DNA of 64,000 bases from Escherichia coli (GTDB lineage Bacteria; Pseudomonadota; Gammaproteobacteria; Enterobacterales; Enterobacteriaceae), in NCBI RefSeq assembly GCF_050920415.1, contig NZ_CP169309.1; one strand, given 5' to 3'. Made by a program: the position numbers. This document shows, in pieces, positions 48,001 to 51,000 of the stretch. Each line of letters begins with the position of its first letter. The stretch's first letter is position 1.

Positions 48001-51000
48001 TGTGGATAATTGTGAGCAATATTTAATTAGCAATCACTGTTTTTCCCCTGATAAGGTTAATGAAATCTGTGAACATGCCAGACATTATTTAGTTGAAAGA
48101 ATGTGTGAAATAGATTCTTTGGCTATGAATAACTCTGATTTGAAGAACCCAGAGGACTTATAGATCACTGTCTCCGGTTTAATGACTTGAATATAATCTA
48201 ATTCTAATATTTTAAACGCCTAATGATTTTTCAACACTGGTCTTATTTTGCTTACACAAAAATTTTATTTTTAATTATATTTCATTATTATTTCATCAAT
48301 GTATTCTTTGGATTTTGCTTATAATAATAATGGAAGGGATGATTATAAATGAATGCGTTATAGCATTTACACTCAGGATGAATATATGGGAAAGATTAAA
48401 ATTGTAGTTTCAGATCAGCAGCCGTTTATGATTGATGGGATAATTGGATTTCTCGGACATTATCCCGATTTATATGAGGTTGTTGGGGGCTATAAAGATC
48501 TGAAGAAAGCTATAGCGGAGTGTAACAAATCTGCAGCCCAAATATTTATTTTAGGAGAATTTGCAGGTGGAATGATGGGGTCCGAACTCATAAAATGGGT
48601 TAAATCGCATAAAATAGATGCTCATATTATTACATTTGTAGCAAAAATGCCGTATATTGATTCAATAAAATTGCTTGAAGCCGGTGCGAAAGGATGCGTA
48701 TGGAAAACCAGTCACCCGGCGAAACTAAATCGCGCTATTGATTCGATTAGTAATGGTTACACTTATTTTGATAGTGTACATATGGATTGTGAAAAAATAT
48801 CTTCAAGATATTCCTCTGATAATCAACTTACAAATCGTGAGTCTGAAATACTACAACTCATAGCTGATGGAAAAACAAACAAAGAAATCGCTAATTTCTT
48901 GCAGTTAAGCAGGAAAACAGTCGAAACTCATAGACTCAATATCATGAAGAAATTAGATGTTCACAGTGGTATCGAGTTGATCAAAACAGCTTTACGTATG
49001 GGTGTTTGCACTATATAAAAAAAGAGGCTTTAGGCTCATTTTGCTAAAGCCTTACGCTTGTCTATTTCATTAAGTCTGGTATATACAACATATATTTTTT
49101 TTGCATATTGCAGCCTCTTTTTTTGGTTTTCCATTGCAAAACCCGCGTTATAAGTCCCCAGACATTGCCACGTTACCCCACAACGTGAAAAATGATTATA
49201 TAAAATCTCGGTCCCTATTTTAATGTTCAGACAGGGGTTATCTAACAAATCTCGTTCATCTTTTATTATTCCACGTTTTTTTAACATGGGAATGTGCATC
49301 TGGTTTATCTGCATTAAACCATAATCAAAACTCTTTATATTGTTTTTCTTATCCCTGTTCTTGCCGATGCTATCATTTTTTAAATTACTTTCAACAAGAG
49401 CGATAGCTTTGATCAAATTTGGTTCGATTCTGAAAATTGATCCTGCTTCATTAAAGCAAGCGCTACTGGCGAAAGACATTTTTGTAATTAATATAGAAAA
49501 CATGAAGATGGATAAGATTTTAACTTTGGGTAAGCGCATATATTTTTATGTGTAGGATTGAAGGAAAGGAACGAGATACTAATATAATCAGTATCTCGTT
49601 AAACATTTAAGTGGTCAATTGTCTACCATTCCAGTTCATAGTAAGGAGAGATAGGATTATCTTTCGAATACATATCATTTTGAAAAGATGCCATCCATGT
49701 TGAAACTATAAATGCTTGTATTTGATCTGTATCAGTAGCACTGGTGGTGATGTGTTTATCTAATGAAACTACTTCATCACCCGTTGCAGTTGCTATATTT
49801 AAACTTTGAGAAAAATTATTCATATTGATTGGATTAGTCATAAAGTTCCCTTTTTATTTGTCCAGGCCAATAGCCTATACACAATACTTTTTAATCTAGA
49901 GTATTTGATATATATTGCAATAAGGTAAATATCTTAGATATTTTCATCTCTGTTGTTTAAATAACTAGTTGCATACATCTAAACAATAAAATTGCGACAA
50001 TAAAGATTTATCGCATACAAATTCTCGTCAGTTGCTTTAGTTTCAAAATGTTGTCAATTATAACTCGATGGCTTTCACTCGAAGTTTCTTTATAGTAGAG
50101 TTTCATGTTGCTTTTGAGTGGGTTAGGCACATACATATCTACACACTCTTTTATCACAACTGCTTTTCGTCTTCTGGGTTCGAGTTGTAGTGATTTGTCT
50201 ATACAAATCCTTGCCTCTTCAATTCTTTCATTATGAAAGTTGACAAGTGCTCTATAGTAGTAGAGAGAGGCTATATCAGTTGTGTGTATCTTAGCCTGTT
50301 CAAATAAGATATGAGATACTTTTTCTTGTCCAGACAGGCCAGTTATCAGTCCCATAATAGCTAAAATTTTTCCATCGACATTGGTTATGTCTGATACATA
50401 ATGTAAAAGCTCTAATGCTTTTTGAGCAGCAAGTTCAAGTTCATATTTTCCATGAAGTGCCAAAGACATATGGCATTCCGCTATCAGACAATAACATTCT
50501 GTTTTTAGCGTCTGTATATCACTTTTATTTTGTAATCCATCAAATATAGTCATAGCCCTGTAAATGCTTTCAGGAGTAAACTCGTAAAGTTCTTTCTTAC
50601 CAGCCAACAGTTCATCTGATAAATAATGATTCTTGTAACCTTGATCCGGTTTAGCTAATCTTACAGAACGCTCTGGATTATGTACCGTTTGAAGGATATT
50701 ATCTATAATAAATTGTGATGTGTTATGTAGTTCATCAACAGGAAGATGATTACTGGCGATGAGGAAAAGATTTTTAGCGTCGATCAGTTCAATGTATAAA
50801 GTTTTCACCGCGTTATTCTGGTTTATTCTTCCTGTAACGAAATAATCTGGCTTGAATCTTCTCAAAAATGAATTTTGCGATATGTGATCATTACAAAAAT
50901 TTGTCGCAGCCATCGGATAGGCATAAAGGCCATCGATTTTTTTATTTGAAATGTTTTGCACTAATTCCTGATTAAGTATTAATGGATCCAGGGTATTCAA

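Follow-up and report, generated by a model that had tools for sequence, protein, structure and literature searches.

Identity and extent of the gene

The stretch of DNA analysed here, a 64,000-nucleotide chromosomal segment of Escherichia coli contig NZ_CP169309.1 (RefSeq assembly GCF_050920415.1; hereafter the window), contains a gene for a LuxR-type regulator with a degenerate, receiver-like N-terminal domain. Judged by its matches in other genomes, the gene is the known ygeK, alias etrB, from ETT2, a type III secretion island. It encodes the protein WP_000516283.1 without any difference, and compared with the O157:H7 protein there are two changes in 210 residues (S66A and I69V). Bases 48100-49100 match 3,509 of 5,426 complete E. 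coli genomes, the best match having 100% nucleotide identity, and the matching reference annotation describes a LuxR C-terminal-related regulator of ETT2, situated between an orgB-like gene and a gene for a lytic transglycosylase (SLT).

A preliminary description, made from the nucleotide sequence of the window, had placed the gene at 48353-49018 on the plus strand, as an uninterrupted open reading frame (ORF) of 221 residues. This ORF is indeed open, and all four peptide strings quoted in that description are found in its translation; its end and frame hold, but the RefSeq record, the alleles and the homologues put the start at 48386, giving a protein of 210 residues (Table 1). In six of ten E. 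coli alleles the ATG at 48353 is followed by an in-frame TAA at codon 3, and one further allele has ATA instead of this ATG. The homologues of the YgeK family all begin, upon alignment, at the position equivalent to 48386. An AGGA sequence lies 7 nt upstream of the ATG at 48386, compared with a purine run 13 nt upstream of the ATG at 48353, and the YgeK protein of avian pathogenic E. coli (APEC) has a length of 210 residues (PMC8614350). On these grounds the ATG at 48386, and not that at 48353, is taken as the true start of ygeK. Residue numbers given here refer to the 210-residue protein; those of the preliminary description are 11 higher. The intergenic region in front of the gene is presumed to hold its own promoter; a promoter scan of 48100-49100 returned five promoter-like sites against 5.4 expected, which is no better than shuffled sequence.

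Table 1. Positions of ygeK, its domains and key codons, and flanking elements in the window
Feature	Position	Strand	Basis
AT-rich intergenic region in front of ygeK, presumed own promoter	48164..48385	+	orgB-like ORF ends at 48163
In-frame 33-nt upstream extension, probably untranslated	48353..48385	+	Allele and spacing evidence
ygeK/etrB coding sequence, 210 codons plus stop	48386..49018	+	RefSeq CDS WP_000516283.1 maps here
Pseudo-receiver domain, residues 1-130, (βα)5	48386..48775	+	Pfam PF00072, AlphaFold2 model, Foldseek
D10-Q11, position of the acidic 'DD' pair; first residue (DD1) kept, second (DD2) lost	48413..48418	+	Opposite DD/ED in 79 ordinary regulators and E8-D9 in DesR
Codon 52 (CAA, Gln), site of the CAA>TAA nonsense mutation, intact in the window	48539..48541	+	Allele comparison
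G57-E58-F59, with G57 at the phospho-acceptor position	48554..48562	+	Alignments and model
V85, in place of the conserved Thr/Ser, end of β4	48638..48640	+	Profile HMM, MAFFT, β4 at residues 80-85
K107, conserved receiver Lys, kept	48704..48706	+	Follows β5 (residues 101-106) in model; 30/30 aligned sequences
Interdomain linker, predicted disordered	48776..48823	+	pLDDT <50 for residues 132-146
GerE/LuxR-type helix-turn-helix DNA-binding domain, residues 147-201	48824..48988	+	Pfam PF00196, E=9e-21
9-bp perfect inverted repeat AGGCTTTAG / CTAAAGCCT, 10-nt loop	49025..49052	.	Read from sequence

Domain organisation and fold

The N-terminal domain had been described as receiver-like, and this is borne out by the Pfam Response_reg hidden Markov model (HMM) PF00072, which matches YgeK with E=5.2e-7 over positions 1-110 of its 111. 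The C-terminal helix-turn-helix (HTH) domain matches the structures of the C-terminal domains of EsrB and SsrB (7vim and 2jpc). The top match among the NCBIfam models is the SsrB-type PRK15369, full-length, with E=2.5e-40 and 138.3 bits, and in a phmmer search of PDB sequences the whole of YgeK could be aligned with DesR, VraR/LiaR, RcsB, EvgA and NarL.

An AlphaFold2 model was built from a 30-sequence alignment, with a mean pLDDT (predicted local distance difference test) of 83.7 and a pTM (predicted template modelling score) of 0.61. It has the five strands of a receiver (β1 4-9, β2 30-36, β3 53-56, β4 80-85 and β5 101-106) together with five helices, and a four-helix GerE domain following a disordered linker. 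The top PDB matches found with Foldseek are the full-length regulators LiaR, RcsB, EvgA, VraR, DesR and NarL, and the atypical regulator VpsT is listed as well. Within the YgeK family, conservation is lowest in the linker (0.42), intermediate in the receiver (0.62) and highest in the HTH domain (0.87).

Loss of catalytic residues

The positions of the catalytic residues were mapped with phmmer alignments, with MAFFT alignments including first 9 and then 79 ordinary regulators, with a profile HMM of the 79 receivers only, and with the strand ends of the AlphaFold2 model. All of these place G57 (Gly68 in the earlier numbering) at the phospho-acceptor position, in agreement with the Gly-Glu reported there by the preliminary description. 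In the phmmer alignments this glycine is aligned with D54 of DesR, D55 of VraR and D56 of RcsB, and in the model it directly follows β3. The β3-α3 loop of YgeK reads G-E-F-A-G-G and contains no Asp.

For the other catalytic positions the preliminary description needs revision. The acidic pair, given as S-D, was one residue off; the pair is D10-Q11 (D21-Q22 in the earlier numbering), and with Q11 at its second position a direct metal-binding acidic residue is gone. In the family alignment this pair is D-Q, D-K, D-R or E-R. The Thr and the Lys were both thought to be kept, which applies to the Lys (K107, formerly K118) but not to the Thr, as the conserved position is occupied by Val85 and the Thr referred to is T83 (48632-48634), two residues before it. 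Here phmmer and MAFFT differ by a residue or two, and the assignment was settled by the profile HMM, by the alignment with the 79 ordinary regulators and by the model. Furthermore, the residue four positions after the acceptor (D+4) is G61 and not Pro, and that three positions before the Lys (K-3) is C104 and not Tyr or Phe. Of the five catalytic residues, YgeK has thus lost three, namely the second of the acidic pair, the acceptor Asp and the Thr, and its receiver is more degenerate than was first thought. Because all three are missing, the catalytic apparatus for His-Asp phosphotransfer is gone.

A small and coherent family

A search of 5.8 billion proteins identified twenty full-length relatives of YgeK with 48-63% identity, followed by a gap to ordinary NarL-type regulators with at most 36% identity. 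The relatives are from E. fergusonii, Yersinia enterocolitica, E. marmotae, unclassified Escherichia and unnamed Enterobacterales assemblies. A profile search of 1.84 billion representatives gave a comparable picture, with three full-length family clusters at 50% identity (344, 272 and 185 bits) before the scores drop to 157 bits or less. Members of the family are 209-213 residues long.

The loss of catalytic residues is a property of the family and not of YgeK alone. In an alignment of 19 family sequences the acceptor position is Gly in 89%, with one Ser and one Thr; the next residue is Glu (E58) in 95% and Asp once, and the one after that is always Phe (F59). The second acidic position is non-acidic throughout (Gln, Lys or Arg), the Thr position is Val, Met, Ile or Phe, and the Lys is invariant; the divergent cluster representatives P0084 and P0088 likewise have L-G-E. 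By comparison, all 79 nearest ordinary regulators have the acceptor Asp, nearly all have DD or ED (a few outliers such as L065 excepted), and Thr or Ser is found almost throughout. Several near-invariant residues are specific to the family, i.e. F22, E58, F59, W71, Y/F84, W106, P111, N115, R116 and the C-terminal tail MGVCTI; W106 is present in 100% of the family and in 0% of the ordinary relatives. The protein encoded in the window carries L-G-E-F after β3, V-W-K after β5 and the MGVCTI tail, each residue of which is 89-100% conserved in the family.

Neighbour-joining (NJ) trees recovered the family as monophyletic in all 30 bootstraps. A specific sister relationship to the enterobacterial SsrB group was recovered in none of the 30 and is not supported. 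The sister in 22 of 30 bootstraps is L065, a divergent protein from a metagenome-assembled genome (MAG); as this grouping may reflect long-branch attraction, we make no firm claim on the origin of the family. Between intact E. coli alleles the ratio of non-synonymous to synonymous substitution rates (dN/dS) is 0.02-0.10 overall and 0.04-0.17 for the receiver half (dS about 0.08-0.10), based on small counts of 10-12 synonymous and 1-5 non-synonymous differences. Judged by family-wide conservation, monophyly and low dN/dS, the Asp-less state is old and has been maintained.

The L065 locus (7947-11860 of CALYPF010000072.1, uncultured Enterobacteriaceae MAG) encodes a partly degenerate SsrB-like regulator without a kinase, with an acidic pair D-H, a β3-α3 loop DPMLSMANPT and a PRK15369 score of 153 bits, which is short of the cut-off. 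The gene of this regulator is divergent from SPI-2-type (Salmonella pathogenicity island 2) sctC, sctD and sseB-like genes and lies directly upstream of a gene for an intimin-like inverse autotransporter. Among the top matches of the family profile in the representative library were also four giant predicted proteins (P0083, P0085, P0086 and P0087) of 2,854-7,703 residues, with 9-21 separate GerE/LuxR-HTH-like stretches; these may be genuine repeat proteins or artefacts of assembly or gene calling.

Distribution of alleles in E. coli

In K-12-type strains codon 52 carries a CAA>TAA mutation (Q52*), and the ygeK gene of K-12 is annotated as a pseudogene. The same nonsense mutation was present in four of ten sampled alleles, and in the sampled strains with this stop allele the neighbouring SLT gene is frameshifted too. 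Haplotypes were counted in the complete E. coli genomes with three mutually exclusive 45-mers spanning codons 50-52. The combination T50/stop-52 was found in 2,197 genomes, T50/Q52 in 246 and A50/Q52, the haplotype of the window and of O157:H7, in 947. About 63% of the approximately 3,500 carrier genomes are therefore Q52*, and about 34% (1,193) are intact as far as codon 52 is concerned. An intact ygeK is the minority state, at roughly one third of carriers, which matters when results are carried over from one strain to another. At residue 52 itself, where β3 starts, nearly all members of the family have Asp, as do ordinary regulators, and E. coli YgeK has Gln; the widespread nonsense mutation affects this same codon.

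Gene neighbourhood and absence of a linked kinase

The order of genes in the window is prgH-prgI-sctI-prgK-orgA-orgB-like, ygeK, and then the convergent SLT gene, ygeI and ygeH of the HilA family. No histidine kinase is annotated in the window, the whole of which is accounted for by annotated segments of NZ_CP169399.1 (99.8-100% identity) and a single IS2 copy; kinases elsewhere in the genome were not searched for. Nor does any HisKA or HATPase product appear in the Pfam listings for the surroundings, out to about 10 kb, of nine YgeK relatives. The statement in the preliminary description that no kinase gene is nearby is therefore upheld for the window and extends to these relatives.

In seven of the nine relatives the neighbourhood is that of a type III secretion system (T3SS), with the gene located after prgH-needle-rod-prgK-orgA-orgB and/or before an SLT gene and a HilA-like gene. 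Some of the relatives in such a setting are on plasmid-like contigs with Rep3 or TraI genes. This synteny, in relatives with 48-63% identity (E. fergusonii, Y. enterocolitica and unnamed Enterobacterales), agrees with the earlier view of a regulator hard-wired into its island. In its core, i.e. a response-regulator-like LuxR protein without the canonical site for phosphorylation and without a linked kinase, which is a fixed part of the island, the preliminary description is supported.

The exception is a subgroup from E. marmotae and Escherichia sp. E1V33, in which the gene is located between a Rep3 replication gene and flhDC with a flagellar cluster. These loci (E. marmotae plasmid CP188183.1, L006 10001-20633; L007; Escherichia sp. 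E1V33, L012 8001-16114) have a YgeK-family gene of 51% identity with G-E-F at the acceptor position. It lies about 1.1-1.3 kb upstream of flhDC, with the order flhD-flhC and then flgNMA/flgB-I, and the loci are apparently plasmid-borne. The placement beside a flagellar cluster is suggestive because ygeK mutants of APEC lose flagella.

Relation to known regulators

The primary paper on EtrB of enterohaemorrhagic E. coli (EHEC) O157:H7 is reportedly that of Luzader et al., 2016. The gene of the window and that for EtrB/YgeK in EHEC O157:H7 and APEC (Luzader et al. 2016; Tu et al. 2021) are one and the same, at one locus and without structural difference, and since the EHEC protein differs at only the two residues mentioned, the reported properties of EtrB should apply to the protein of the window. 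According to reviews on EHEC, etrB is monocistronic, positively autoregulated and activated by QseA; EtrB binds the regulatory region of ler/LEE1 and represses etrA and eivF; and deletion of the gene alters the expression of the enterocyte effacement locus (LEE) (PMC10877973, PMC8565820, PMC6393859, PMC11068852). In APEC, deletion of ygeK reduces flagella, motility, serum resistance, adhesion and biofilm formation (PMC8614350). The reviews label EtrB an SsrB homologue of the NarL family. The EtrB reviews and the APEC literature do not mention a missing phospho-acceptor or an absent kinase, the primary EHEC paper lying outside this scope.

YgeK shares with the SsrB/EsrB-type regulators (PRK15369) the combination of a receiver and a GerE domain, a similar length, an 'A-Y' motif in β4 and a role as regulator in T3SS islands, and SsrB/EsrB-like proteins of Sodalis, Morganella, Edwardsiella, Yersinia aldovae and Hafnia are its nearest ordinary relatives (33-37% identity). 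It is, however, not an SsrB equivalog. Its score against that model (NF011896/PRK15369) is below the 242-bit cut-off, compared with 324 bits for the Morganella relative, and the DD2, acceptor Asp and Thr that SsrB-like proteins keep are all missing from it. No adjacent gene for an SsrA-type hybrid kinase is present, whereas the gene of the Morganella relative overlaps with one (PRK15347, 1261 bits), and YgeK belongs to an SPI-1-type (prgH-orgB) island, whereas SsrB belongs to an SPI-2-type island.

YgeK fits the class of pseudo-receivers or aspartate-less receivers (ALRs), as defined by Bourret et al. 2025 and Maule et al. 2015 (PMC12632262, PMC4395418). Like VpsT, CsgD, RitR, HP1043 and ChxR, YgeK is recognised by PF00072 and lacks catalytic residues, and its pattern is typical of the class, DD1 being kept and DD2, the Pro at D+4 and the Y-T coupling pair being lost. 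It also has a LuxR/GerE output domain, as do VpsT and CsgD. It differs in having Gly at the acceptor position, where Glu is the commonest residue in the class, and its conserved Glu comes one residue later. Among about 2 million receiver domains, several percent are pseudo-receivers, and a mode in which they are constitutively active and regulated by their availability has been described; a search of the texts of both surveys did not find YgeK named (PMC12632262, PMC4395418).

Another regulator of comparable description is encoded by sprB of Salmonella, which lies beside hilC and orgCBA, at the org end of the SPI-1-type island. Like YgeK, SprB is a LuxR-type regulator without a kinase that acts on genes outside its own island (PMC6726612); it has been called Salmonella-specific (PMC6726612), and the likeness to YgeK considered here is one of description.

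Proposed mode of action and alternatives

We consider it probable that YgeK is a phosphorylation-independent pseudo-receiver transcription factor of the LuxR type, which would be active as made and controlled by its abundance. This proposal builds on the observed fold, the residue losses, their conservation in a monophyletic family, purifying selection, the lack of a kinase in cis and the position in a T3SS cassette. The pseudo-receiver retains the (βα)5 fold but would be unable to take part in His-Asp phosphotransfer, and would have no partner kinase. YgeK would then be constitutively active, its pseudo-receiver serving as a fixed structural or oligomerisation module for the C-terminal GerE HTH domain, with dimerisation probably occurring via the α1/α5 face as in NarL-family regulators. 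Its output would be set by the amount of protein, for which the promoter of ygeK, autoregulation and QseA would be responsible; the last two are known from literature and fit such control by abundance. In most E. coli lineages the Q52* allele would remove this output. More speculatively, the conserved E58 beside the acceptor position might, together with K107, mimic the phosphorylated state.

Several points weigh against this proposal. The interdomain arrangement is uncertain in the AlphaFold2 model (pTM 0.61), which is silent on whether the pseudo-receiver might occlude the HTH domain. A second-hand statement in PMC11045786, citing Yamamoto et al. 2005, includes YgeK among the non-cognate regulators with which BarA shows cross-talk in vitro. 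Moreover, the near-invariance of E58, F59, W106 and K107 around the former active site suggests that the pocket has a function, which would fit control by a ligand or a partner equally well. In this main alternative the pseudo-receiver would be a regulated input, whose remodelled pocket (G57-E58-F59, W71, Y/F84, W106 and K107) binds a ligand or partner and thereby switches DNA binding. Candidate partners could be RcsB, as for RcsA, BglJ, GadE, MatA and DctR, a T3SS chaperone such as YgeG, or an anti-activator. Such an input function seems rather unlikely to us, albeit worth keeping in mind. The residues F22, E58, F59, W71, W106, P111, N115 and R116 do cluster at the former active site and α1/α5, in a receiver half that is under purifying selection, yet fold stability and homodimer contacts explain their conservation equally well. 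Control by ligand or partner has precedents in VpsT (c-di-GMP) and Rem (MirA) (PMC12632262), and VpsT is among the fold matches of YgeK, but no ligand or partner of YgeK is known. An input function would, finally, be compatible with control by abundance. An even more doubtful extension of it is that the YgeK family is a dedicated pseudo-receiver clade of the SPI-1-type T3SS cassette (in cryptic Escherichia clades, of a plasmid-borne flhDC cluster), in which the pocket formed by G-E-F, W71, W106 and K107 would sense the secretion state, in the form of a freed chaperone or small ligand, and couple assembly of the T3SS or flagellum to transcription without a kinase.

The c-di-GMP-binding motif of VpsT is W[F/L/M][T/S]R. 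This motif does not occur in the 210 residues of YgeK, in which the only similar stretch is V-W-K-T-S, and c-di-GMP binding in the manner of VpsT was therefore rejected.

The remaining alternatives have very little probability in our view. The gene could be a decaying relic of an SsrB-like regulator in a degraded island, with the lost Asp and kinase as signs of a non-functional remnant, as ETT2 is eroded in many strains, Q52* is present in the majority of carriers, the K-12 gene is annotated as a pseudogene, and in the window itself the eivJ-like and spaO-like genes are fragmented or frameshifted according to the annotation of a 100% identical reference segment. This is highly improbable given that the same substitutions are fixed in proteins of 209-213 residues with 48-63% identity and a conserved neighbourhood, that dN/dS between intact alleles is low, and that its deletion has consequences for LEE expression in EHEC and for flagella and biofilm formation in APEC; for the intact allele of the window we reject it. 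Less credible still is that YgeK is controlled by phosphorylation of a non-canonical residue (D10, a Ser, Thr or His, or through cross-talk with BarA) or by another covalent modification. The second-hand report on BarA and the retention of D10 and K107 would be in its favour, and modifications besides Asp phosphorylation have been discussed for aspartate-less receivers (PMC4395418). Against this, DD2, the acceptor and the Thr are all gone, and the β3-α3 loop offers no Asp. The YgeK product of K-12 is truncated and lacks residues 1-63, and as this was probably the protein used in vitro, labelling by BarA would not have been at the canonical site.

Surroundings in the island

The inverted repeat AGGCTTTAG / CTAAAGCCT falls within the 17-nt gap region that separates the stop codons of the convergent ygeK and SLT (iagB-like) genes, and may be a bidirectional terminator; a terminator scan of 48100-49100 called none, this repeat included.

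Five further regulators are encoded in the island, at 29901-30650, 42305-42796, 50008-51384, 54408-55217 and 55551-56243. These are InvF-like, EtrA-like, YgeH, YqeI and an EcpR/MatA-like YqeH, with outputs of the AraC, LuxR-HTH, and OmpR/HilA or CadC/ToxR types. YqeH has no significant similarity to YgeK, and the EtrA-like protein is similar in the HTH domain only (E=2e-5), which makes YgeK the only receiver-type protein of the island.

The etrA-like LuxR-HTH gene (minus-strand ORF 42305-42796) has a 1.33-kb IS2-like element (42770-44103) inserted at its 5' end. An otherwise identical reference strain does not have this IS2 copy, and carries instead an IS3 close to where the island starts and an IS2 within ygeG. 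Since EtrB reportedly represses etrA, the etrA arm of the circuit may be missing in the strain of the window.

Implications

The gene ygeK/etrB was already known and functionally studied, as was the class of pseudo-receivers or ALRs; YgeK is a fresh example of this class and not a new mechanism. Within the searchable literature, its recognition as a deeply degenerate pseudo-receiver appears to be new, as do the delimitation, by this state, of a small monophyletic family that is embedded in SPI-1-type T3SS cassettes, and the allele frequencies in E. coli.

YgeK/EtrB ties the cryptic ETT2 to virulence genes of the LEE in EHEC and, in APEC, to motility and biofilm formation. The label of 'SsrB-like response regulator' used in reviews implies a missing kinase and a missing signal. 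If YgeK is a non-phosphorylatable pseudo-receiver, there would be no kinase to seek, and the questions would become how its abundance is controlled and which ligand, if any, its pocket binds. More broadly, the YgeK family adds a small, well-delimited and T3SS-linked clade to the bacterial pseudo-receivers.

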